Notes: a model not told the origin generated them from the letters alone. Counted from the first letter of the whole stretch, positions 1 to 57,719 are shown. The stretch: DNA of 57,719 bases, filler included, from Sphacelaria rigidula (GCA_964200075.2; 4 parts of 4 records of this genome joined end to end with filler, not necessarily neighbours in it); one strand, 5' to 3'. Made by a program: numbers and translations.

Positions 1-253
1 AGGGATGGGACTTCAACCTCATATTATGTTTCAACCCCAAGAATTAGGATCGGCTGTTTTACGGTACTTGTAATAATGTGCGCTTCAAGGCAACTCTGTG
101 AAGCTCCCAAGAGTATAGTATGGCGGCGCGTGCACCGCGCCAAGTTGATAAAGAACAGTGGATTCTCGAAAATAGGATGGAACAAAAAAATGGGGTCCAA
201 GTCAAAAGTCGCGTTTCGCCTGGCCTGAATTCATGAAAAATGACTTTCATGTG

Positions 254-491
254 GACGATCTCATCCCTCCCGATCTCCCCACCTAGAACTATTTAGGGGG
301 ATTTCTAGCCTTCCGTTCCACCAAACAGTATGCGCAAAAGCGCACTTTCACCTCGATTTCGGGGGTGAAAAAAATATCCTTTGGGGGCCAAAAATCGTGC
401 TTTCATTTCGCACATACCCTTTGGAGGAACGGAAGGCTTGAAAATCCCCGAAATAGTTTTGGGGAGGTCGGGAGGGATGTGAGGTTGTCCA
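254..491. repeat. Imperfect palindromic (foldback/MITE-like) element
   Basis: Left arm gacgatctcatccctcccgatctcccc...ccttccgttcc is mirrored by right arm ggaacggaagg...ggggaggtcgggagggatgtgaggttgtcc. Confidence 0.65.
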
Positions 492-2637
492 TCTGTGTGT
501 GTGTTGTCGTCCCACCTATTCTGGACGCCGGTCTACAGCTTTCAATTTCATGTGTGGGCGCATCAGCTGGGGTCAACAGGAGGAAGGTCAACACGGGAGT
601 TTGTTGTTTGTTGTTCGTGTTTAGAGCTATAATAGTACTCCACCTTCCTTCTGCGGTGCATGCCTTCATTTTTTTTTCGCGAGAGAGGTTTCAGCAGTCC
701 CTTTCCCTCGTCGACCGTTGAGTCGAGTTATGAAAGCCAATCGTCATGAATTCAGGTCAGGGAAAGAACAGCTTTTGAGTTGAACCTCATTATTTGTTCA
801 ACCCCATTTTCGAGAATCCACTTTTAGAGGGTGTTATAGGGAGCATCGCCCACACTGCCTTGAGCAAAGCTTGCGGACGTTCGAGGCGCCTTCCCCATAC
901 GACTGCCACGAGGCAGTATAGCCAAGCCTTCGGGTAATCGGCACACGAACTCGCTTGCGAGGTAAGGCTAGGTTGGATCTTCCTTCCGTCAAGGGGAAAA
1001 AATAAGAAGAAGAAAAAAGGCACCCCTGTTGTCACCAGTGAGTGACCAACGATCCGACCGGTGGATTCGCTATATATATGGGATCGAAAGAGAGATCTCG
1101 CTGTAGTGACCCATGTGTGATTCTTAGTCTGTGATCCGGTGGATCAGTTTGATGGGCACGACTGTGAAAGCCGATCAGAGGACACGTCTCGCAGCCGATA
1201 CGGTTTGAGTAGAAATTTTAGTTGTTGTCAGGTAGCCGAAAGGAGGAGTGATCTCAGGTGCACGAATGGCCGCACGTCAAACATCAACCAGAAACTCACC
1301 CATGTCTCGGATACGTATTACGGCTAAATCCCGCCACGTGTGACGGTCAAAACACATGGCACAACCGCATCACGAGTGTACTTTATTTTTTTATAGACCC
1401 AGCATCGGCGACCCTATATACTGATGACTGTTTATAGGAACAAGATGCTCCTGCTACTGTACGAAAGACCAGTCTGAAAGCTTGGTTCAAACCGCAGTCC
1501 CGCAGCGTTACCGTCGTGTCTCGGCATTTTCAGTGAGGTCGCGTATTTCAAAGACAAGATGCACAGGGTTTATGAGATCCATAGCGTTTGTAAATTTCGG
1601 CGCCTGTCGACAGCTAGACTCAACTACGCATTCTCACTGAATATCGCTGCTCGAGTTGATGGGCATCTACCAAGCGGTCGTCACCTGTGGCCCGCGGCAT
1701 CCGTGATACTTCCTCTGGAATTGTCTGACGAGAATTTATTTCATCATCATCTTGTGTTGTGATTACGGGTCAGATAAGAAACGAGTACATTGACATGATG
1801 GAAAACGCGGAACGGTGCTGGTGGTCTCCCTCTTGATCTGGGTTTGGCTCGCGAAGGCGTTGGACTGCGGCAATTTTTGCCCCGTCCGTGTTCCTCACAA
1901 AACACATCACCCCTTCTAGTGTGAAGATCTACTGTGTTATGGAGGTAAGAACTCACAGAAAGCTGCAACCACTGAAACAAATTGTTATGTACACGGTGGA
2001 CTGTGCACCGCAACATCACTACTGTCGTCACAGTCAGTAGCTGTCGGCATAGCAGCTTGCACCGAAGCAGACTGTTCCAAACCCATTCCGCGATGATGAC
2101 AATACCACCTGTCCTCGACTTCTCCAGTATCCGCGGCGGTTGATCGTACGATCACGTCTAAAAGAGTTGTATTGTTGGAGATAATCGATCGAGAGTACTG
2201 ATTTAGCGGGTTCGTTCGGCGGTGCAGGATTGTTCGGGGATTCTAAACGTACCGGGGGTGCTATACACCGTCATACGCGCTATGCGCTATTACTGAGTAA
2301 GGGTGACTGTGCCGTTATGTACTGCGCGGTACTTTCTGTAGTTCATGAAACTTGAGCTTACGCCGCTACCGGCTGCGCCCGCCATGTATCCAAGCCCCGG
2401 CTCAGCCTTCCCCCCGGAGTATCGCTTGGCCACTACCCCATTAATTTTCGCCTCGGCTCGATGGAGTGGTCTCTCCGCAGGCTGGGGATGAGGGTACGTT
2501 GGTGTTACTCCCAGCATATCGAAATATCGCGATAGGTGAAACTTACGGTGATGCCTAGAGTTTGAACATCAAACGCTGAATGTAATGAATTGAGGAAGTA
2601 TTTTGATTTTTTTTCAAGATGAACTTTTGGAACTTTA

Positions 2638-3572
2638 GACCGACTCCAATGGAAACCGTTCAAAATTCCTGTTCAAAACTGCCTTCTTGGCCCTTCTCCG
2701 CCGTTTTACGCCTGAAAAGAGGGATAGGCGGATTTTGACGCGTTGGAATGACTTGCTTTACTCATTGAGACCGTTCCAGGGCAACTTTGCATTCCCGCTG
2801 GCCGCATTTTTATATTTGGCTGAACACGGATTTTGATTGAAAATCGGTCAAGCGATCAAAATACTGGGGGAGATTTTGATCACCTGGCCGTTTTTTATTA
2901 CAAACTCGTGTTTGACCTGGTTTTTTCAAAAACGAAAGTGCGACCAGCGGGAAATGCAGAGTTGCCCTTGAACAGTCTCGACGATCCCAAGGCGCCAACA
3001 TCCGCCAAGCCCTCTGTTCGAGCGTTAATCGACGGAGAAGGGCCCAAAAGGTAGTTTTCGACAGAAGTTTTCAGCGGCTCCCATTAGGCCGACTCTAATG
3101 GCAGCCGTTCAAAATTTCAGTTCAAAACTGCCTTTTTGGCCCTTCTCAGTCGATTTACGCCCGAAAAGAGGGCTGGGCGGATGTTGACGCCTCGGAATGA
3201 CTTGCTCTACTCGTTGAGGCCGTTCTAGGGCAACTTCGCATTTCCCGCTGGCCGCACTTTTGTTTCTGGCCAAATGAGGCGAGGCACGGATTTTCAGTAA
3301 AAAACAGTCAGGTGATGAAAATTTCCCCCTGTTTTCTGATTGCTTGACCGTTTTTTTGTTGGAAATCCGTGTTTGGTCAAAAAATGAAAGTGTGGCCAGC
3401 GGGAAATGCTAGGTTGCCCTGGGACGGCCTCAATAAGTAGAGCAAGTCATTCCGAGGCGTCAACATCCGCCTAGCCCTCTTTTCAAGCGTAAAACGACGG
3501 AGAGGGGCCAAAAAGGCAGTTTTGAGCAAGAATTTTGAACGGCTCCCAGTAGAGTCGGTCTTAGAGTTCGCC
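2638..3572. mobile_element. Long-TIR MITE (PIF/Harbinger/Tourist-like), outer copy
   Basis: Begins TTA|GACCGACTCCAATGG and is internally palindromic. Its right TIR (cggctcccatta...gagttcgcc) is split by a second copy at 3087-3560. Confidence 0.7.
3087..3560. mobile_element. Long-TIR MITE (PIF/Harbinger/Tourist-like), nested copy
   Basis: Termini GGCCGACTCTAATGGCAGCCG...CGGCTCCCAGTAGAGTCGGTC, with TTA on both flanks (3084-3086, 3561-3563). Most of the 474 bp is self-complementary. Confidence 0.8.
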
Positions 3573-5478
3573 TTTCCGTTTCTTCCGGTTCGTTTTTTTC
3601 CCTCGTTCTTTGCAACAAATTATGAGGGAAAAATACCGCTAGGAAAATACTGTGGGAGATTTTGACCCCAGCTTACGGTTGCAGATATATTTTTGACGGT
3701 GCACTTGTTACTGTAATGAATTTGTTTCGCGACATGTAGCCCGCCATGCGCTGTTCAGTCAATATTACAACAATGCAGTACGGACCGTGTACCACGACAC
3801 GACAGCAGAGTGCTGTGTCTCTCTCGCGCGCCCCAGAATTTTAAAATAATACCCACATGCCTTGCAGAAGGGGATGAAAACTGATTTCCGGTTTTGACAA
3901 GGTCTTGAGCACATAAGAACGGTTGCTTGAGAAGAAACTGTTGGAGAACCTATTAGTGAAAAGGGTTTTCTGACGCAAACGAAGTGGTTTTATCCAGGGA
4001 TCTCACAAGTTGCAACTGGATTTCTTGTTAAAAAGAACGAGGTCACACATCGCGGCCGGATGTTTTATTGCATTTTTGTTCTTGAGAATACTTCGATGCT
4101 TAGTAAAGGCATCTCAAACTCGATATTCCCGGTATTTTTCAGTAATGTACCGTTGGAAATGTCCGGAACCTCGAGTTTGAGATACTGTACCACTTGTAAG
4201 GCCACTTCCCATGTGTAAGAAAGAAAATATTTTGAAAAAAAATGGTCTTCCTCCGTCGCTTTTAGCCCGAAATGAGGGTTAGGCAATTAGTGTATACAAT
4301 ATCTACAGTAACGACCACTTTTCGGCCTTGTTCACCCTGCATGCATACAAGCAAACAATAATGTTGTTGTGCCACGCATTGTGATGCGTCAAAATCGAAC
4401 GACCACAAGGCGTTAGATTATGTCACGGTAGATGGAGCCAACAAAATAAGCTGCCAAGTTGTCAAATTGGTTCCACAGGTCCTGAAAAATGCCAATGAAA
4501 AAAGGCGACCGAAGATATTTATTCCGGTGCGGCAGGGGGCGGACTCGGTTGTTGCTTGCAATAGCCGTTTGACCATTGACCACGCATCCTTTCCGAGACG
4601 GAAGGACGGGGGGGCGGGGACAGGGTGAACTCATGATCGGGGGGGGGCACGGGGGAGGGTGTTCCAGGAAAATTGTCCTTCACTGCCCTTGAGCAAGCAG
4701 GGATATTGTTTTCATTTTCCCCCTGAGACGTTTTGGGCTACACTGAGAATCGGACAAGATAAAACTGTATACGATTTCAACGTGAATTTTGATTTTCCTC
4801 GTCTGACCGCTGAATACATACCTTCAACGCGTAAATATTTGATGGCGAAGAGGAGAGGGTGCAACATCCTCTCAAAGGCGTTCCACCGCCATGAACTTCG
4901 GACTCCTCAACTGTTGAAATAGGCGTGAGACGCGCCAATAAATGATTGCTCTCGTGAATGTTTCATGTATCGCCATATAAGGCCGCCTGCTTTGTATATA
5001 GTATGTAGATGAGATGCGAAATAACCAAGCAAAACCGTCCCTTGTTCGCTTTTTTTGTCGATAGTCTAGGGTGATGATCCACCACATATTGTTGGAAAGT
5101 CGCTTCCACGTACTTCTTGCCGATGCCGGAACAATCGGTGACTTCGCTGTCGGTGTGGGGATAAGTGCCGAACTTTTTTTTTTGTCATTCTGAAGCATGC
5201 AAGCACGTGTCTAGGAGGTAAAGATCTAGTGCTCCTCCACCAGTGAAGATTGTGGCGTTGGAAAAGCTCTTGGAGACCTTTCATTCGACCACAAGAAATG
5301 TTTGGGTGTCGATGCTATAGAGGCGTCACCCTGGCCGAAAGTCAACGCCAAACCCACGCGTGGGTATCATTCCTGTGTACGCGACGGATACAGCCATCAT
5401 GTCGTTGGAAGATGTCGGTGTGTGAAGATGCGGTACCGATGATCACGTACCCCAAAGCAAACGCAGTTAATGATGACT

Positions 5479-5727
5479 GACACTTTCTACGATAGCCCCC
5501 CCCCCGAAACCAGCCCGAAAGTGTCACGAAAAAAATGGCCATACAGCGCCTGACGTTTGGGTTCAGGCTGCATAAAGCGCCTCATATTGGTAACATTGGC
5601 GAGAACGAACCCAAGCGTGGGAATTCCCAGCTGCTTGTTGTGCTCGGCTTTTCCCAACTCAATTTACGTAAAGATTTTGCCTCCCAAAACCATGCACTTT
5701 TGGGGGGGGGCTATGGTAGAAAGTGTC
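5479..5727. mobile_element. 249-bp MITE with ~24-bp TIRs
   Basis: GACACTTTCTACGATAGCCCCCCC ... GGGGGGGCTATGGTAGAAAGTGTC (one mismatch), with GACT on both flanks (5475-5478, 5728-5731). Confidence 0.75.
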
Positions 5728-5880
5728 GACTTTGTTTCCTGCCGGGCTAGCCGTGGTACCCATACACTGTTGGCCGACTCCTGATTGCAAATCGACGCAA
5801 GCGATGCTGTGATCGTCCGCCCGCCAAAAAGTCTTTTTATGTGGGTTCACGCCCGCCCCCGTCCCTCGCCGCTCACGTAG

Positions 5881-6189
5881 GGCTCAGTTGACACTCCTGA
5901 CGCACTCGGAGCTTCTACTGCCGTCGATAGCAGCACCGATTCTGTCGCAGCAGTAGCAGCTGCTGCCGATGCCGGTTGCGGCGGTATGACCCTGCTTGAG
6001 GTGCAAAGCGAGCAGCTGGCCATGAAGCTCCAACGAGAACTGAACGCGGGAAGTTCCGCTGATTATGACAGCGGTAATGCCGGTGGTTTATCTACCAGCG
6101 GCCCTACCGATCACCGGGTGTTCGGAGGGGGTCCTTCGATAGAAGTTGCTGCGCAGCAGGAGCAGCAACAGTCGTCGTTACCTGGTCAG
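5881..6189 (+). CDS. RIOK3: RIOK3-like (RIO family atypical kinase), N-terminal exon A (partial gene)
   Basis: Acceptor cacgtag at 5880, donor gtgagt at 6190, phase 0. Encodes TLLEVQSEQLAMKLQ, which resembles the animal RIOK3 N-terminal motif SLADVMSEQLAKELQ (recalled from memory). The start codon or an upstream exon is not established; the ATG at 5986 is possible. Confidence 0.65.
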
Positions 6190-7614
6190 GTGAGTTTTCA
6201 AAATTAGTCCCTTTGAGTCAGGTGACTCGAAAATGACATTACAAGGGAACAGGAGCCACAGAATCCTTTGGTAGCCTAAAATCCGTCGGGTAGAAGGGAG
6301 ACGGGGGTGGGGGAGGGAGTGCGGTGCACCTTTTCTATGTTCTAGCCACCACAGTCGCGTTCGTACTGAGTTGTTGTAAAGGGTCCAGCTGTTTCATGTG
6401 CCGTCATTCGAATTCGGCGTCGTACCAAGTTATCATGTAAAAGTGAAATGCTTCCCTGGCAGTAGATGATTGTACCCGAAGTTTTTTTTTTAATTGAAAT
6501 CATGTCAAACGTGTCGCGCCTTGCTGGCGCGTCAAAAGTATTTTTGATGCATAGTAATTCCGCCCCGTGCGCATCGTACTGTACACAGGCAACGCAGAAA
6601 CACACTTGGGCATCTTGCCTGATTTCCCGTTGCCCCCGTTCGAATAATGATGGAGTGGAATTCCAAAAGTTCAACTCGGGTAGCTGTCAGTGGTCTAGAG
6701 CATTGCTTCCCCAGTGCGCTGAGTGAACTCCCCACACTCCACAAACGCACGAGAAAGTACTGGGGTCGCTCGAAAAGCTCAAACCTCCACGACAGGGATG
6801 AGCGCGCGTCGATCATAATAGAGGTGACGACGTTCCACGGCAAGCTACCGGAGGAACAATTTAGTATACTGCGGTGAGGCTAATTTTGTCGATTCCGATG
6901 CCGAAGCCAACACGAACAAGCATGGCGCTTGACGTGACTGTGCTCGGGTTCCAACCTTTCCAACGGCAAGTTCTTCGTCGCAGGAACAGCTTCACGTACG
7001 TCGTATTGCGCTGACGCTTGATTCTCGGTTTCGAAGTCGGCGTGCGTAAACTTTTCGTTGCAGGAAGTTCACGGTACGCCGATCACGCCCACTCCACTCT
7101 ATTTTCATATATTTCTTTGCCACTGTTGTGTCGCCGTGGCCTGGGGTCTCGGGGGTTGAGGCGACGCCTGAGAGTCAGAGTTTAGCTTCATCTTCTTCCG
7201 GCACGACTCCGCGTGTGAGATTCAAAGCAAGCTCTCATGTCTTGCAGCGTACTGTAGCACGATGCACGCGGGAACAACCACGAATTCCGCCAACGCGATT
7301 TCACCCCCGGAGAAGCACCGCTTTCCCACGTTGGTACCCTCGGTTGGAGGTCTTGGTGATCGCGAGTCTGATCCGGCGAAAACACGGCCTGCTCCGTCCC
7401 GGCTTCGAAGCGAGGTCAACGGTCATATGAGTACGGCATGCAAGATCGTGAGTACACGCGTCCCGTTGGAGGTCTCCCTGTTGGGAGTAGGAACGGTGTA
7501 CCGTCTCGAAAGGGATGCGTGGTCAATGGTCGAATGACAAAGGCAATCAACAAATGAGTACGCTCCCCCTCCCCACTCCCCCTGCCTGTCTTATGCCTTC
7601 TTTTGCCTCATGAT

Positions 7615-7917
7615 GAGACAGACACCTATGAGGCAGTGTGTAAGCTGTGGCTGTCTCTAGGAGTGGCGATGCCAGAAAATGAAACAACTCATTGTAGGCT
7701 GTCATCCAAGTGCAAGATAATCAGTAGGCTTCTGATCGAACAATCTTAGCAGGATGCAGCTCCACCTTCATGCGACTCGCCGAACACACCACGGCGCCTC
7801 GCGCTTGGTGATTGAGTGCGAGCCTGGTCCGACGAAAATCCAGCGTGCTCCGTTTCGGCTTGTAGGGATGCGAGGTCGATGATCTTCTGACTATGGCATG
7901 CATGATCATGAGTGCAC
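7615..7917. repeat. Dispersed ~300-bp repeat family ending ...GCATGCATGATCATGAGTRCAC
   Basis: Aligns by eye with 16218-16521, 7340-7460 and 15955-16005, and in reverse orientation with 32294-32395 and 57673-57719. Confidence 0.8.
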
Positions 7918-7919
7918 CC

Positions 7920-7948
7920 CCTGCCTGCCTGCCTGCCTGCCTGCCTGC
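7920..7948. repeat. (CCTG)n microsatellite
   Basis: About 7 direct units in the pyrimidine tract upstream of exon B. Confidence 0.9.
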
Positions 7949-7985
7949 TGTGCACGTCTCACGGTGACTACCAAAGCCAAAGCAG

Positions 7986-8333
7986 CCCACCATGCCACCA
8001 GTTCAAGGCGTATGGTCAACCTCTGGTCCCACCGCGGCTGATCTTCTCCGCGCATCCAATAAGGAGGCCGATATTGGTCAATCATTGGTCCAACTTGGAG
8101 GGATTTCCACCGGGGAGAGTAGCGTTGGCGGCGCGCCCCCGTTATCGGTGGTGCCGCTCACTGCTGAGTCCGTGGGTGCGCTGGTGGAGATGGGTATCGA
8201 CGAAGCCACGGCAGCAGCGGCTTTGCGGAGATGCGGCGGTTCGGACGTCACAAGAGCGTTGGACTTTTGCTTCTCGCATGACATGGATCCTCTGGTGGAG
8301 GAAGACTCACGATCGGTCGCCGCTGCACCCCAG
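7986..8333 (+). CDS. RIOK3: RIOK3-like gene, exon B encoding a UBA domain
   Basis: Acceptor agcag at 7985 (in-frame alternatives start at 7977 or 7983), donor gtgatt at 8334, phase 0/0. LVEMGIDEATAAAALRRCGGSDVTRALDFCFSH fits the UBA consensus (L..MG.....A..AL......V..A.d.l). Confidence 0.7.
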
Positions 8334-8689
8334 GTGATTCAATCGAAAGGCAGTGTGGTGGGCCATAGCGGCATTTTCTTCCGCAATATATATATATATA
8401 TATATAAACAAGGGCCCTTGCCGGCCTTCGGCCAGCTGCAGCCCCTTTTTTAGCGGGTCACGGCCGACGCGTTATCGACATCCACGCTCTCGTTTCTGTC
8501 GTCGTTGGTGTTTTCGCTTTGGTGCGGAGGCTGAGAAGAGCACTATTCATCGTGTGGACCGGCAGCGGTGCAGTTGCCGGTGCAGTTTAACAACCGCACG
8601 AGTGGGGGGGGGGAAGCGCTCACTTCGAGTCTCGATAGAGTACCCTCCGAATTTTATTTTTTGTCGTCGTATTGGAAGAAACAAAAGTG

Positions 8690-9060
8690 ACTCCCGGGGT
8701 GGAAAAACTGTGTTTTAACACCACAACACTCATGGGAGAAAGAATGTCCGAGCCAGGACTCGAACTCGTCCCCCGGTGTGACAAAATCGTGTTTTACTTG
8801 AGCACTACGAGCGGGGGGAAAAAAGCGCCTAGGCGAGGGCTCGAACCCGGGCGTCAATGTGTGCTTTCAGCCGAATTCTAGTCTCGGCAGAGCATTTTTA
8901 ATTTCAAGTTTTTGTCGTCGCATGACAAGAAGCGGAAACAACTGTCGGTGTATAAACTGTGTTCCAATACCGCAACGCGAACGGGAAAAAAAACATGCCC
9001 GAGCCATTACTCGAACTCGACCCCCGGCGTGAAGAAATCGTGCTGTACTCAAGCACCACG
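8690..9060 (-). repeat. Cluster of tRNA B-box-like (SINE-like) repeats
   Basis: Minus-strand GGTTCGAGCCC / AGTTCGAGT motifs recur at ~8757, ~8837 and ~9010 within related ~70-bp units. No complete cloverleaf. Confidence 0.4.
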
Positions 9061-11547
9061 AATATAATGGCAAAAGCTGCACCCGCTCTAAATTTGTACT
9101 AAAATTAGTACGTCAAATCTCACCCCGCTCACGAGAGACTACCTCCCTGTGTACCCGCTCTAAATTTATGTAGAAATTACGAACGTGCGGAAAATTCGAC
9201 GAGGCTCGCGACGCGGCGTCGTCGTTGCGCGTTTCCCGTATCCCCGCCGAATCGCTAGATTCAATTCGATGTGCGTTGACGATATCAACGGGTTTCGACT
9301 GCGAAAACTGCTGTTGCGTCGAACCTCATACGCTGGGTGTCCGCAACAATAGAAATTTCTCATCGACGCATAATCCGTTCAATAATAATCGGTAGTTGAG
9401 GCAGGCAGTAGCATGGTCGTGGATGCAGACGGAATGATGTGGTCACAGCAGCACAAATTGAAGCAAAAATCGCAACGATGCTCATCGCTGACCATAGTTT
9501 TTCACAACATTACCGTAGTTATCAAGTAGCCGGTGAGTCATGTGTATCACAGGTGAAGGAGGCGGATAACACACGCTGATGATAAACGTCCGATTACGTG
9601 GCACAATCTATTTCTCATGCAATGACGAGATTCTCCCGGGCGCAATCGATTCCCACACGTGACCGCGTGCAGAACCGGGTCACGTGCGGAGTGCATGCCG
9701 GTGTGGTTGGGCGAGGTTCTGCTCAAGCACATAGCGACTGCGTTCTCCTTATCAGCTGTCGAGCGGTCGTGAACGTAACTGTTGCAGGACCCCCACCATG
9801 ACGCGTCCGTTCGAACGGTCTTGAAGGCGACTGTACGATTACACACCTAGAACCCGACACATACTGTAGCACGAACAACGCGGACTGGATACGTAGGACG
9901 GCCATTCGACCTTACAGACATCTCCCGGGCGGGTGCGGGGGGTCTTGTACACTAGCTAGAGCATACATCTTATGGACGCCTCCGTACGATAAAGACCGAA
10001 CGCTCGTGAGCCGTCCAAATCTTATGTAGAGATACAAATATTATACAGAGGTACATACATTTGTCGTTTCTTCTCCGCTCTGCGTATGTGCTGTCTGTGT
10101 ATCTTGTGACCTAACCATGGCTGGCTTCGTGGCGGGTCAGTTTTGTGGAACATGTCACAATACACCAATCGATCAATCGAGGTAGTCGATGAAAATCACC
10201 ACAAACAGTAAGGGGTGCTTTTGAGCAAGGGGGTGTGTGGTGGCAAGCTGTCGGGGAAAACCAGGCATCTCACACGGAACTAATTCGTTGCCACAGGGTA
10301 TACGGTACACGCTGCGCCCCCGGTCGTATGACTGGTACATGTTGAAACCGTTAACGCGCGGATTGGGGGGGTTCAAATCCGACGACCGTAGATTCGTTGT
10401 CTCTCTGTGGAGTGATGTGACTTCTGTCGCTCGGACCGTCGAGATTTTAGTGGAGAAGAACAGTTTCTTCACGGAAATCGACGCGGTACGGGGGTGCTGT
10501 TCCGACAGGCGATGCCAAAATGCGAGGTATGTGCCCGGGAGGGGGGGGAGATGGGTTGATGCCGCGAGCCTACCAACTTGTCCCGAGGAAGGAGAGAGCT
10601 TGGAAGTGTGACGGATGGATACATCATGTCGTGGTCCGAGTTGTGACTTATTGGCTGGTTGATTGTCGCACATTGATCTATCTGCAAATTAAACTAGCCA
10701 TGACTACGATATATAGGTGTGCAGGGACTGAAGAACAAGGGACAAATGAGACGGAAACACCTCGCTAGAGGAAACTGCGGTCGAGTCGTCTACGGTCTTG
10801 AGTGGTACCGCGTTGTATTTTGTGTTTGTGGTGGTGGGGTGGGTTTAACAGTGTTCATGTTTCGATTTGTTTTGGTTCCGGTTTTGATTATTCAGTCCAC
10901 TCTTGTTTGCCTTGTTGTCATATTTTTATTTTTCTCACTCACGATGGCCATTGTTTCTAGACAACATTTCCGTTTTGTTCACCTCGGGTACGTCTCTCGG
11001 GCGGCAATGGCCGGGTCCATCGGGAACCAGTTATTTAGCGACAATCAGTGCGTCTTTAATGTGTGGCGTACCCGCGACTGTTCGTGTCGGCGTTGTTTTG
11101 CTTTGTGCACTTCAAGCACCAGGACATTTCACTCTAGTGGGTCTCGCACGATTGACGCAGGGTAATCACGAGAAGAAGCGCAAAGGTAGAGGGGTTGTGT
11201 ATCGGGAAAATAAAGCACCCTCCTCTTCGCCCGCCAACCCCGCCAGCTCCCGATCAACGATCCCGATAGTCATCCCACCCGGGAAACTCATTCGCCGAGA
11301 ACCCCTTTTGCTTCGTGTTGTGTTCAAGCTATTTGATCGGACCAACAATAGCGCCTTTACCCCCCCCCCCTTCCCTGATCTGAACTGCTGTCCATCGCAC
11401 ACGATTCAAAGCACTGGCTTCAGTTGTTTGTCTGCCGGAAAATTTCATAGCCCTTCCAGTATTTGCTGTTTTTGAACCAAATGTTAGTGTTCATCATCAT
11501 GATGCATTTAGTTTTGTTCATCTTGTTTCCGTTATACACACACGACT

Positions 11548-11614
11548 GTTGTTGCTGTTGTTGCTGTTGCTGTTGCTGTTACTGTTCTTGTTTCCGTTGG
11601 TGTCGTTGTTGTTG
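11548..11614. repeat. (GTT/GCT)n low-complexity microsatellite
   Basis: Direct gttgct repeats just upstream of the exon C acceptor. Confidence 0.85.
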
Positions 11615-11672
11615 GTGTGCGCCACAGTACTGACGACTCCTGTGCCTCCCCTCCCTACCCCCGAACGATCAG

Positions 11673-12115
11673 GATATCGACACGGATATGGCCTTCGCCA
11701 TGGCACTGGAACAAGAAGAACGTCGTGCATTCGAAGCACGTCGCCGCGCAGCCGCGGCGGGATTATCCGTCGACGGCAGTGCCCTCGGATCCAAGATCCA
11801 GATTGGGGGCGCGCCGGTCGCCCCCGCTGCCAGCGGCAGTAGTGTGGGGAAGGGCAGGAAATGGGGTGCTGCAGACGCGGAAAATATGAAGAGCAGTGTT
11901 GTGTTGGGGGGGGAGCGTGGTGATGGTGACGATGAGGTGTGTGGTGGTCTTGGGTTTGATCAAGGGTCGGTGAAGGGTGCTGAACCGGGGGAGGATGACT
12001 TGGAGGAGGAGTTTGTGGCTGTGCCCGGCGGAGGCCGGAGGAAAGGGAAGATGCCGCTATTCCGGAATGCTGATGGAGAGGTTGTGTCGAAGCACGATGC
12101 GGTTATATGCGGAAG
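11673..12115 (+). CDS. RIOK3: RIOK3-like gene, exon C; kinase domain not on this contig
   Basis: Pyrimidine tract plus cag acceptor at 11672, donor gtattt at 12116 (phase 2). DIDTDMAFAMALEQEE and VVSKHDAVICGR resemble the RIOK3 motifs IDTSSDLMLAQMLQME and ITTKHDEVVCGR (recalled from memory). Confidence 0.75.
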
Positions 12116-14357
12116 GTATTTTTTATTTCAAAATATTCGACTTCGGAATCACAAACACACACACATACATACACACACACAAGCTGACAGGCGAGACGTG
12201 CAGCGCTCGTGAGTTTTACTATAGTGTACTTGTGGTGAATCTCGGTCAAATACCACTGCAACCCTCCCCCCCCCGCCCCCCCTCCTTTTCCACCGGGCGA
12301 GTCCATGGAGACGAGGAGTCTGTCCATCTCTCCCCTGGCACACGTACTTCCCTGACAAAATATCCCCGGGCACTGGATTAGAAGTGCCGGATACCGTCGA
12401 CGTTTCCTCCGAATGCCAACTTTCGTTCTTACGTTTCGCCCGACAGAAAACCGGAAAATATGCATATAAAGCTCTACTGATTGCTGATGCAACATCCGAA
12501 GCAACGAGATCCACTACAAGGTAGACTGGTGTGTACGGGTTTGATCAACCGGGACACGGCGGCAAACTACAGTACATTGCCTGTTTTTGCTGATGCCCAT
12601 TCTCTCCTCTGTCATAGACGTACGTGTGATATCATTTATTGTTTTGTCCGTCACATTAGCTCGATCTCTCGAACTCATGGTCATGGACTGCAAGGAGCAG
12701 AAACGGGTAAAGGTGTAGGTTTTGAGAGTTGGGAATGTATCGAGAGTGAGGGCCGCTGTGGCTTTACGCATTGTGGGTAGTTCGTCTGCTACCGCACTGT
12801 ACTTCTCGTTGGCTTGTGTTGATATGTGTATCCAAATTGCTGTCCCGTGTGTGCTTGGAGGCGGAAGAGGCTTTACCGTATTTTCTTCCCCCGTTATGCC
12901 CTTTTTGCCGTTATTTACACGGTTCATCAATAGTTCCCCCCCTACCCCCCGCTGTTAAAAACACCTGCTTTCTGAACGGCGGCTAGTACAGACACACTGT
13001 TCGGTACTATCTGACGCCAGCAGATCGCTATGGATACGGTCTCACCAAGACGATATGTCGTCGGCTGACCTCAAGAGTGTTCGATGGTTTCCTTGATCAA
13101 TCTATTATTAACATCCCTTTCATCCCCCTCTCGTCATTCACAACACTTTGTCTACAACAACACTTGTCTCAATACCACTGCTGGACACTCGGGTACCAGA
13201 TGGGAAGGGGATTCAGGTGGGGTTCGTGGTCGTGCGCGAACACCGTATTCATCGAACACTTTTCTGGCACCTTCACTTTGTGGTAGGGTCCACCGACGGA
13301 GGGTGGTAGTTTTGGTTCGCCATCACTGCAGTTTATGTGTCCCTCTGCTCAGCTCGTGATCTATGCGGCAGGGTTGCGTTGGTGACTGCGAAAGAACCAT
13401 ATGGGGCTTGCATAGTTCGAGTTGAAGAAAAGTTGGTAAGACACGGCCTCAATACGGATCTACATAGTCATCTCGCTCGGCTGAATCACACTGGGTACAC
13501 TACTGATTCCCGAACCGTTCCTTTCGTACCTCGTACTGAGCCGTACTAACTCCAATTCCTGGACCGTTCCTGCCAGCGCACCGTACTGAACCGTTATGGC
13601 TCCTGATGTACCGTGTTTGTCATCTTACTCGGACATTATTTACACGGCTTATCCATAGCCTCCCCCCCCCCTCCCCCTTGTTGAGAATCCCTGCTGTCTC
13701 CACGGCCTCTGGTACAGATACACTCGACACATGAACGTATGAAAGCAGATGAAATCAACCCCCGCAACGGGTCAACCACAGCAGCTCTCACTGACAATAC
13801 ACTATCATCTCGCAAAACCCATACCATGACAAGCACGAACACACATGACGAGACAAGAAATAGGAAATCAGCAGGTAAAAGCACACACAGCAGTGTTTAG
13901 CCGTCGTGCCCCTGTTGATCAAATTGGTACGCACCAATGTACCTTGCCGTGGACATCATTGGCTCGGATCTTGCGTCGGTAGAGCTTTGAAGACTACATG
14001 CACACGCTAATAGCTAATCGCTGTAAAACGGAGAAAATAACAGACGATTTCAAGTTCCTGTTTTTTTCGCGCACTGTGTTCTATTTCATTCACATGTCAC
14101 ATACGAGAGCGAGCATGCACCGGAGAGAACTGTCGACAAGGATGAGGGACTTTGGCTCTTTGTACGTGTATTCACCTACAGCACCGATGCTGATTGCGAC
14201 TCACAATCGTTGGTCTCATGAGTCTACGTGAAGGTCATGCGAAGAACTATCTTTTGGACCTTGGTGTTATCCCGTGAACGTAGGTACGTACGTATGCATC
14301 AGCAGCAAAACGAATCAAATCCCCCCCCCCCCCCCCCCCCCCCCCACCCCCCCCCCC

Positions 14358-14457
14358 NNNNNNNNNNNNNNNNNNNNNNNNNNNNNNNNNNNNNNNNNNN
14401 NTTAATTAATTAANNNNNNNNNNNNNNNNNNNNNNNNNNNNNNNNNNNNNNNNNNNN
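14358..14457. other. Artificial contig linker N44-TTAATTAATTAA-N44
   Basis: Exactly 100 nt; the core has stop codons in all six frames; identical to the other two linkers. Confidence 0.98.
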
Positions 14458-16217: not shown

Positions 16218-16521
16218 GTGAGGCACCCACGAGGCCGTGAGTGTATAGCACGTGGCTGTCTCTGGAAGTGATGATTCCAGAAAATGAAGCAACTCATTGT
16301 AGACTATCATCCAAATGCAAGATAGTCAGTACGCTTCGGGCCGAGCGATCTTACCAGGATGCATCTCACCATTCATGCGACTCGCCGAACGCACCACGGC
16401 GTTTCGCGCTTGATGATTGGGTGCGAGTCTGGTCCGGCGAAAGCCCGGCGTGCTCCGTCCCGGCTTTGTAGGAATGCGAGGTCAATGATCTCACCATGGC
16501 ATGCATGATCATGAATACATC
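16218..16521. repeat. Copy of the dispersed ~300-bp repeat family
   Basis: Colinear with 7615-7917 (tggctgtctct.g.agtg..gat.ccagaaaatgaa.caactcattgtag.ct.tcatccaa.tgcaagat). Confidence 0.8.
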
Positions 16522-16585
16522 CCTCTCAGGTTGGGACAGCGTTGTAGCAGTCCAGGTGAAAAAAAAAAAATGAACTACGTTCTTG

Positions 16586-28812: not shown

Positions 28813-28912
28813 NNNNNNNNNNNNNNNNNNNNNNNNNNNNNNNNNNNNNNNNNNNNTTAATTAATTAANNNNNNNNNNNNNNNNNNNNNNNNNNNNNNNN
28901 NNNNNNNNNNNN
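28813..28912. other. Artificial contig linker N44-TTAATTAATTAA-N44
   Basis: Identical 100-nt linker. Confidence 0.98.
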
Positions 28913-32259: not shown

Positions 32260-32293
32260 CTTTTTTTTTCAAGGACAGGGGCAGAGGAAGGAG

Positions 32294-32395
32294 GTGTACT
32301 CATGATCTTGCATGCCGCAGTCATGAGACCATTGACCTCGCATCCTTACAAAGCGGGGACGGAGCACGCCGGGTTTTCGCCGGACCGGGCTCGGT
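32294..32395. repeat. Copy of the dispersed repeat family, ending ~33 nt from the ARP2 acceptor
   Basis: gtgtactcatgatcttgcatgcc...attgacctcgcatccttacaaagcggggacggagcacgccggg is the reverse complement of the end of 16218-16521. Confidence 0.8.
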
Positions 32396-43266: not shown

Positions 43267-43366
43267 NNNNNNNNNNNNNNNNNNNNNNNNNNNNNNNNNN
43301 NNNNNNNNNNTTAATTAATTAANNNNNNNNNNNNNNNNNNNNNNNNNNNNNNNNNNNNNNNNNNNN
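43267..43366. other. Artificial contig linker N44-TTAATTAATTAA-N44
   Basis: Identical 100-nt linker. Confidence 0.98.
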
Positions 43367-57503: not shown

Positions 57504-57719
57504 AGAAAAACGAAACTGAAACACGCTCTGAAGAAAAGAAATATGGGCGAGATCATCGGAAATGATCCGAAGCATGGGAAGTTCCCAGCTGCTCGGTTTA
57601 CTCGACTTTTGTCATTTTGGTATACATACAGATTTTGGCTCCTCAAACCAGGGATTTCTGGGGGGGGGCGGGGTGTACTCATGATCATGCTTGCCATAGT
57701 CATCAGACCATTGACCTCG

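Follow-up and report, generated by a model that had tools for sequence, protein, structure and literature searches.

RIOK3 is described in passages of PMC12008924 as a protein with tandem motifs interacting with ubiquitin (MIUs), a conserved helical linker and a RIO domain; the tandem MIUs bind polyubiquitin, and the decay of RNF10-marked 40S subunits requires both ubiquitin binding by RIOK3 and its kinase activity. Passages of a further report state that RIOK3 binds ubiquitylated 40S subunits and promotes rRNA decay (10.64898/2026.04.26.720784). In the excerpts available from four papers, the range of RIO3 is given as higher eukaryotes, multicellular eukaryotes or metazoans only (PMC12008924, PMC5815136, PMC7749174, PMC4894443). 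Among these, one places RIO3 "only in multicellular eukaryotes" (PMC5815136), a second "only in metazoans", while listing four RIO-like genes for Phytophthora infestans, an oomycete, under names other than RIO3 (PMC7749174), and a third holds that unicellular organisms have just two RIO kinases and takes a duplication in metazoans as the basis of an adaptive account (PMC4894443). Our literature search, judged by titles and the first lines of abstracts, found no work on an algal or protist RIOK3. Here we describe three spliced exons at positions 5881-12115 of a 57,719-nucleotide stretch of DNA from the stramenopile alga Sphacelaria rigidula (GCA_964200075.2), referred to below as the window. 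The region is very probably the 5' part of an expressed RIOK3-type RIO kinase gene, with its closest database relatives in Ectocarpus, and it carries a ubiquitin-associated (UBA) domain on an exon of its own. An earlier note, made from the sequence alone, had proposed a RIOK3-like N-terminus here; its two background statements, that RIOK3 has been described as an animal or multicellular RIO paralogue and that the RIOK3 N-terminus binds ubiquitin and is tied to 40S turnover, agree with what is printed in the cited passages (PMC5815136, PMC7749174 and PMC4894443 for the former, PMC12008924 for the latter).

The closest described system is human RIOK3, solved on 40S particles (PDB 8zdb, 8zdc and 8zdd), with which the predicted algal protein has a common order of elements: a MIU-like helix, a second MIU-like helix, a conserved helical linker starting KHDxxxCGRxN, and the RIO domain. 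The alga differs from human RIOK3 in having a UBA domain, on its own exon, between the two MIU-like helices, and in its longer, low-complexity spacers; the Ectocarpus protein additionally has an acidic C-terminal tail of approximately 150 residues. Direct similarity of both algal MIU-like motifs to their human counterparts is not significant by itself. RIOK1/Rio1 has the same broad RIO domain type, and the kinase of the best-matching Ectocarpus protein (P0001) is 45-50% identical to fungal and animal RIO1, but RIO1 features neither the KHD linker nor a MIU/UBA head (the linker occurs in 0 of 33 representatives bearing a RIO1 motif) and forms a separate clade. Outside Ectocarpus, one protein alone was found to have this UBA at the corresponding position, a 554-residue environmental sequence (P0006) whose source name is "RIO kinase 3". 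It is compact, with no long spacers and no counterpart of the block that precedes the UBA. A further five proteins combine the same linker and RIO core with a different module and no UBA (Zn_ribbon_RanBP in P0124, P0130 and P0223; UIM in P0133 and P0249).

The window comprises four pieces of approximately 14.35 kb each, which are not contiguous and are split by artificial spacers at 14358-14457, 28813-28912 and 43267-43366, each consisting of 44 N, TTAATTAATTAA (with stops in all frames) and 44 N. Only 1-14357 is contiguous with the exons, so that sequence past 14357 cannot be read as downstream of the RIOK3-like gene; just 2.2 kb of genomic sequence lies 3' of exon 3 within this first piece. 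Splicing was assessed in contigs from sequencing runs X1-X3, which belong to one study and whose RNA nature is a guess (likewise for X4), and from X5, a DNA run under the same organism label. The gene layout is as follows.

5881-6189, plus strand: exon 1, coding, with MIU-like motif 1; open from 5881, with AG at 5879-5880 and the donor GTGAGT at 6190
6190-7976, plus strand: intron 1, 1787 nucleotides, GT..AG; joint 6189 to 7977 in X1, X2 and X3
7977-8333, plus strand: exon 2, 357 nucleotides, 119 codons, phase 0/0; a conserved block, then the UBA (approximately 8163-8294)
8334-11672, plus strand: intron 2, 3339 nucleotides, GT..AG; joint 8333 to 11673 in X1-X3
11673-12115, plus strand: exon 3, with MIU-like motif 2, a Gly/acidic spacer, the basic patch GGGRRKGKMP and the linker start; ends 2 bases into a codon
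12116-14357, plus strand: start of intron 3, with GT at 12116; reaches the end of the first piece, the next exon lying beyond

All frames of the three exons are open and their splice sites canonical. Reading the sequence and these splice signals confirms that the three motifs and the UBA lie in frame in the order first proposed. Within exon 1 the motif EVQSEQLAMKLQ occupies 5998-6033, inside a MIU-like stretch LLEVQSEQLAMKLQRE at approximately 5992-6039, while exon 3 carries the second MIU-like motif, DTDMAFAMALEQEE, at 11679-11720 and the linker start, VSKHDAVICGR, at 12084-12115. The joints 6189 to 7977 and 8333 to 11673, both GT..AG, occur in contigs of X1, X2 and X3, the latter joint flanked by at least 255 letters on each side, so that transcript-like contigs do join the three exons as had been supposed; neither joint was found in any contig of the DNA run X5, although X5 covers both introns. 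Contigs of 3449, 3496 and 3527 nucleotides from X1-X3 hold exon 2 spliced to exon 3; in X1 and X3 the first 28 letters of these long contigs are the end of exon 1. They extend approximately 2.6 kb past exon 3, and the X3 contig reads (R)MNARDASKLD past 12116, matching Ectocarpus GRMNARDASNLE over the 30 letters beyond exon 3 that were examined. Read mapping skipped the simple repeats at 7912-7954, 8379-8415 and 11542-11621, and parts uncovered in X1-X3 (much of intron 2, most of 12308-14357) were excluded from the evidence. The RIOK3-like gene is real and expressed.

The limits of two exons and the forms of the transcript bear further comment. Exon 2 had been placed at 7986-8333; its end and its 0/0 phase stand, but spliced contigs move its start 9 bases upstream to 7977, which adds the residues PKQ. 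The single in-frame ATG of exon 1, at 5986, is the probable start codon. Contigs of X1 and X3 covering exon 1 map to 5879-6189 and carry 105 and 95 further letters respectively, which would lie upstream of 5879 if the minus-strand record is read so. Because exon 1 itself has an acceptor before it, at least one additional exon probably lies upstream. Contigs of X1-X3 spanning 6160-7447 cover the final 30 bases of exon 1 and read on into intron 1, at a depth of 14-55, against 148-264 for the spliced form, and represent unspliced or intron-retaining RNA, in which the frame stops at 6205-6207. The long contigs of all three runs retain exon 2. A joint from 6189 to 11673, as would be produced by skipping of exon 2, is absent among the joints listed, though contigs drop rare forms, so some skipping may occur.

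To recognize the motifs independently of the window, profiles were built from six RIOK3-like proteins, with the window's own protein excluded, and run over all 2318 six-frame open reading frames (ORFs) of at least 15 residues in the window. The motif-1 profile matches exon 1 (E 1.6e-6) and the motif-2 profile matches exon 3 (E 2.4e-4); the linker profile matches the end of exon 3 over its first 22 positions (E 1.6e-7), and a profile running from motif 2 to the linker matches exon 3 at E 1.8e-18. The profiles select only the three exons, the next best of the 2318 ORFs reaching E 0.15 or worse for any profile. The motif-1 and motif-2 matches predict two MIU-like helices in the RIOK3 order, and the second aligns with the animal-like MIU2 in hhalign. 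A Pfam search returned no match for exons 1 and 3, and the link from the window to animal RIOK3 runs through Ectocarpus orthologues and profiles.

Searching with the protein of exon 3 retrieved four Ectocarpus proteins at E 4e-23 to 8e-15, led by the 810-residue P0001 (4e-23) and including the 813-residue P0003 (2e-21). Both present motif 1, a conserved block, the UBA, motif 2, a spacer, GGGRRKGKMPLF and VVSKHDAVICGR, followed by a RIO domain (PF01163, E 2.9e-57 in P0001 and 3.2e-57 in P0003), so that the motif order from which a RIOK3-like N-terminus had been proposed is found fused to a RIO domain in close relatives. When P0001 was compared with the window by tblastn, its matches were confined to residues 19-54, 86-192 and 214-362, corresponding to the three exons, with 58% identity for exon 1 (residues 19-54) and 54.6% for exon 2 (residues 86-192). 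As the earlier note had stated, the kinase domain is invisible in the window: tblastn gave no match anywhere in it to P0001 residues 363-810, and the best E of a kinase profile over the 2318 ORFs was 4. Against the solved RIOK3 chain 8zdb_p, P0001 scores 232 bits (E 1.4e-67), aligning residues 349-651 with 160-461, from the KHD..CGR block onwards; against RIOK1 it scores 211.6 bits, aligned from residue 398 only, and against RIO2 at most 35.8 bits. The P0001 kinase carries KTTLSEFGNR, a RIOK3-type pattern, rather than the RIO1-type KTSILVFKDR, and in a protein atlas the nearest named clusters are RIO3 at 0.94, with RIO1 at 0.89. Of the 8000 candidates in a word-based search with P0001 residues 1-400, the four Ectocarpus proteins were the sole matches, low-complexity words having apparently swamped the search.

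The public model of another of these proteins, P0004 from Ectocarpus siliculosus (546 residues), has an internal gap when set against the other Ectocarpus proteins, carries approximately 135 extra residues at the N-terminus and ends within the linker with 15 unrelated residues and no RIO domain. By comparison of the sequences this model looks mis-built, which would hide the RIO domain and give rise to the name "UBA domain-containing protein".

To place the kinase, 1.84 billion cluster representatives (50% identity level) were searched exhaustively with a profile, which yielded 7332 matches at E <= 1e-3. Among the best 150 of these, 95 feature the linker (local profile E <= 1e-3), 33 feature KTSILVFKDR, none features both, and the 22 with neither include many short fragments. 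The motif-2 profile also matches 30 of the 95 linker-bearing representatives, and in every case motif 2, the linker and the kinase follow one another in that sequence. One linker-bearing representative, P0160, matches solved RIOK3 over its full length with 488.6 bits, against 249.5 for RIOK1, and when the protist group (A2) and the animal-like group (A4) were compared profile to profile, the alignment had a probability of 100 and was collinear from MIU2 through the linker and kinase. A FastTree phylogeny of 166 kinase domains, from which three rows were left out as partial domains, recovers a RIO1-type clade of 50 with support 100 and no linker-bearing members; P0001 falls on the other side. 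A second phylogeny, from IQ-TREE, took in 81 rows: one in three of the remaining linker-bearing rows, one in two of the RIO1 rows, 18 chosen rows and, as outgroup, 12 archaeal Rio1 sequences. It recovers the RIO1 clade with an SH-like approximate likelihood-ratio test (SH-aLRT) value of 96, and the archaea with 99. In both trees P0001 groups with P0127, a kinase-only fragment that is 75% identical, and then with P0006. In the IQ-TREE phylogeny it sits within a group of 23 (support 92), separate from a group of 17 (support 90) that holds P0160; the algal RIOK3-like protein is therefore, as far as these trees resolve it, not nested among animal-like sequences. Grouping with RIO1 or RIO2 had been named as an outcome that would count against a RIOK3 assignment, and neither was found, P0001 lying outside the RIO1 clade and scoring no better against RIO2 than noted above. 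By these measures the kinase of the Ectocarpus orthologue is closer to RIOK3 than to RIO1 or RIO2, and it falls outside the RIO1 subfamily in both motif and clade.

The UBA domain reported between motifs 1 and 2 is well founded. Exon 2 matches Pfam PF22562 (UBA_7) at E 8.6e-9, with 35.6 bits against a cut-off of 27, and PF00627 (UBA) at E 1.4e-4, with 22.1 bits, just below the cut-off of 22.4. A single-sequence AlphaFold model of exon 2 places helices at residues 63-71, 76-85 and 91-100 with a predicted local distance difference test (pLDDT) score of 82-87, the remainder being of low confidence, and so predicts a compact three-helix bundle. When this model was searched with Foldseek, the top eleven rows and most further top rows were UBA domains, none at E <= 1e-3; one example, the UBA 1z96_B, superposes with a root-mean-square deviation of 0.5 over 33 columns. 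Upstream of the UBA, exon 2 also contains a block, QGVWSTSGPTAADLLRASN (8004-8060), that is conserved in Ectocarpus as QGAWGVPGRSAADLLRSAN. It is modelled as a short helix at residues 20-26, with low confidence, and is absent from P0006.

Within RIOK3-like proteins this UBA is rare, being found besides the window only in Ectocarpus and one environmental relative. At E <= 1e-3, the four Ectocarpus proteins have a Pfam UBA match, against 0 of 113 other RIOK3-like representatives; among five further RIOK3-like proteins in the Pfam scan, only P0006 has a weak match, to UBA_HYPK (4.7e-3). A local UBA profile run over 266 proteins matches only the Ectocarpus sequences and P0006, the latter at E 6.5e-34. 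The UBA of P0006 immediately follows motif 1, ahead of MIU2, and has the DFC..QDM tail as well; the shared position and tail suggest one insertion that predates the split of the Ectocarpus-type and P0006 lineages. Nor is the UBA+RIO architecture widely annotated, which would have removed its novelty: four Ectocarpus records and one environmental protein were found, the Ectocarpus records being named "unnamed protein product" or, for a truncated one, "UBA domain-containing protein". The earlier note had also read the UBA as an added, possibly skippable, ubiquitin reader on a phase-0/0 exon. The symmetry of the exon (119 codons, 0/0) is upheld and the rarity of the domain fits such an addition, while skipping found no backing among the joints listed. 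The UBA exon may have been shuffled in, as the note proposed. Together with the Zn_ribbon_RanBP and UIM modules found in the N-termini of other RIOK3-like representatives, this distribution makes the head of the family seem to gain and lose ubiquitin-type readers. The zinc ribbons of P0124, P0130 and P0223 may bind ubiquitin, as ribbons of the NZF class do.

Several observations weigh against reading the region as a RIOK3-type gene. The RIO domain is not visible anywhere in the window; exon 3 alone, compared with solved structures, returns no RIOK3 and only a chance-level match (E 0.89); and motif 1 of P0001 scores -2.5 bits against human RIOK3, which is not significant alone. Runs X1-X3 are identified as RNA by guess and come from a single study. 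Since 30 contig letters beyond exon 3 were examined, the kinase part of the gene in Sphacelaria rigidula is itself predicted from Ectocarpus. On the side of phylogeny, the 45 RIOK3-like rows form a grade around RIO1 in the rooted, unconstrained IQ-TREE tree, not a clade, and in a word-based search with the kinase region only, the best 120 are mostly RIO1, with fungal and animal RIO1 scoring about as high as any sequence beyond the closest relatives. These last two points, with the closeness of the P0001 kinase scores for RIO1 and RIOK3 (211.6 against 232 bits), are what would be expected if the gene were a RIO1 paralogue that had gained its ubiquitin-binding motifs independently and was no orthologue of animal RIOK3. 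We nevertheless regard such an origin as improbable. A pre-kinase linker of approximately 60 residues is common to the algal protein and animal RIOK3 but absent from all 33 RIO1-motif representatives, and collinearity with the animal-like group extends over MIU2, linker and kinase with a profile-profile probability of 100. The RIO1 clade leaves out the algal protein in both trees (support 100 in FastTree, 96 in IQ-TREE), and the P0001 kinase has the RIOK3-type rather than the RIO1-type motif. As to the paraphyly, an approximately unbiased (AU) test does not reject a tree that unites the 45 RIOK3-like rows in one clade (p-AU 0.495), this constrained tree being 0.15 log units better.

Two other accounts keep the exons but dispense with the kinase. 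The gene could encode a kinase-less UBA/MIU protein, with the longer Ectocarpus models being erroneous fusions of two genes; P0004, which has no RIO domain in its 546 residues, offers a precedent, and the window contains no kinase exon. P0004, however, stops inside the conserved linker, and its 15 unrelated residues look like intron read-through, whereas the linker is continuous with the kinase in two independent Ectocarpus models, one environmental protein and 95 representatives. The longest contig of the relative P0009 is 1841 nucleotides, and the transcript contigs from the alga extend approximately 2.6 kb beyond exon 3, where the frame goes on into the residues that come next in Ectocarpus. 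We judge a kinase-less protein to be about as improbable as a RIO1 origin. Slighter still is the chance that the region is a truncated or decaying partial duplicate retaining 5' exons only, as might be supposed from the visibility of three exons and no more, the repeat-rich introns and the lower-depth contig that keeps the start of intron 1. Its frames are open and its splice sites canonical, the spliced form is deeper than the intron-retaining one, and the contig continues past exon 3 with conserved coding sequence. The absence of kinase exons is accounted for by the window's artificial break, which falls 2.2 kb beyond exon 3. The 5' part of an expressed RIOK3-type kinase gene is thus the reading that we retain.

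The introns and their surroundings contain several repeats. Part of intron 1 (approximately 7276-7950) belongs to a high-copy family with further copies at 4535-4601, 16221-16523, 32280-32393 and 57670-57719; the copy at 16221-16523, in the second piece, is 306 bp at 83% identity. The summed contig depth of this family reaches approximately 883,000 in the DNA run X5 (at 7572-7867) and approximately 145,000 in the transcript-like runs, and many repeat-to-repeat joints appear in the read tables. Intron 2 contains two direct copies of approximately 153 bp (8658-8810 and 8909-9061; 74% identity) that look tRNA-like by eye; in 1-14357, ARAGORN found no tRNA and Rfam gave no match. Simple repeats lie close to the exons: (CTGC)n at 7912-7954 before exon 2, (AT)n at 8379-8415 just after it, (GTT/GCT)n at 11542-11621 before exon 3 and (CA)n at approximately 12150-12180 after it. 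A long C run occupies 14325-14357, at the end of the first piece. With the three exon ORFs set aside, the 88 ORFs of at least 70 residues in 1-14357 have no Pfam match.

If the RIOK3-type gene functions as its family membership suggests, its head would comprise three ubiquitin-reading elements: a MIU-like helix from exon 1, the UBA bundle from exon 2 and a second MIU-like helix from exon 3. This head would be followed by a flexible acidic/Gly spacer, by the beginning of the helical linker (KHDxxICGRxN...) and then by the RIO ATPase/kinase domain, presumably encoded by exons beyond the first piece. By analogy with human RIOK3, the head may bind ubiquitin on 40S proteins, while docking on the 40S subunit, and its commitment to rRNA decay, would fall to the linker and RIO domain. 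In such a scheme a third ubiquitin contact could come from the UBA, raising avidity or altering chain preference. For this gene, the capacity to bind ubiquitin and 40S subunits, any part played in 40S turnover and whatever the downstream exons encode are expectations drawn from family membership.

The alga thus holds a UBA-bearing RIOK3 variant in a lineage where the cited literature, in the passages available, denies the family. RIOK3-like sequences were already present in public databases, P0006 even having been auto-named "RIO kinase 3". That a stramenopile RIOK3 would point to an older origin of the pathway, as had been argued, is upheld in direction, given that the algal protein is not nested in animals and that many linker-bearing representatives exist; the taxonomic breadth of RIOK3-type proteins is judged here from sequence diversity alone. 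A RIOK3 family older than animals is supported in direction by these comparisons. Going further, we put forward tentatively, as a scenario that we do not yet favour over its alternatives, that a ubiquitin-reading RIO kinase and its 40S-decay route predate the animal-stramenopile split, arose near the eukaryote root and were lost repeatedly, e.g. in fungi. The head would then be a cassette that swaps third readers (a UBA in brown algae and their kin, RanBP zinc ribbons or UIMs elsewhere), and the MIU-UBA-MIU form may read other ribosomal ubiquitin marks or chains than the two-MIU head of animals.

An expressed brown-alga-type orthologue, together with at least 95 linker-bearing representatives, argues against the animal-only picture of RIOK3, and suggests a much greater age for the reader step in ubiquitin-dependent turnover of 40S subunits. 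MIU-UBA-MIU heads provide natural variants for studying how specificity for ubiquitylated ribosomes depends on the number and type of ubiquitin-binding elements.

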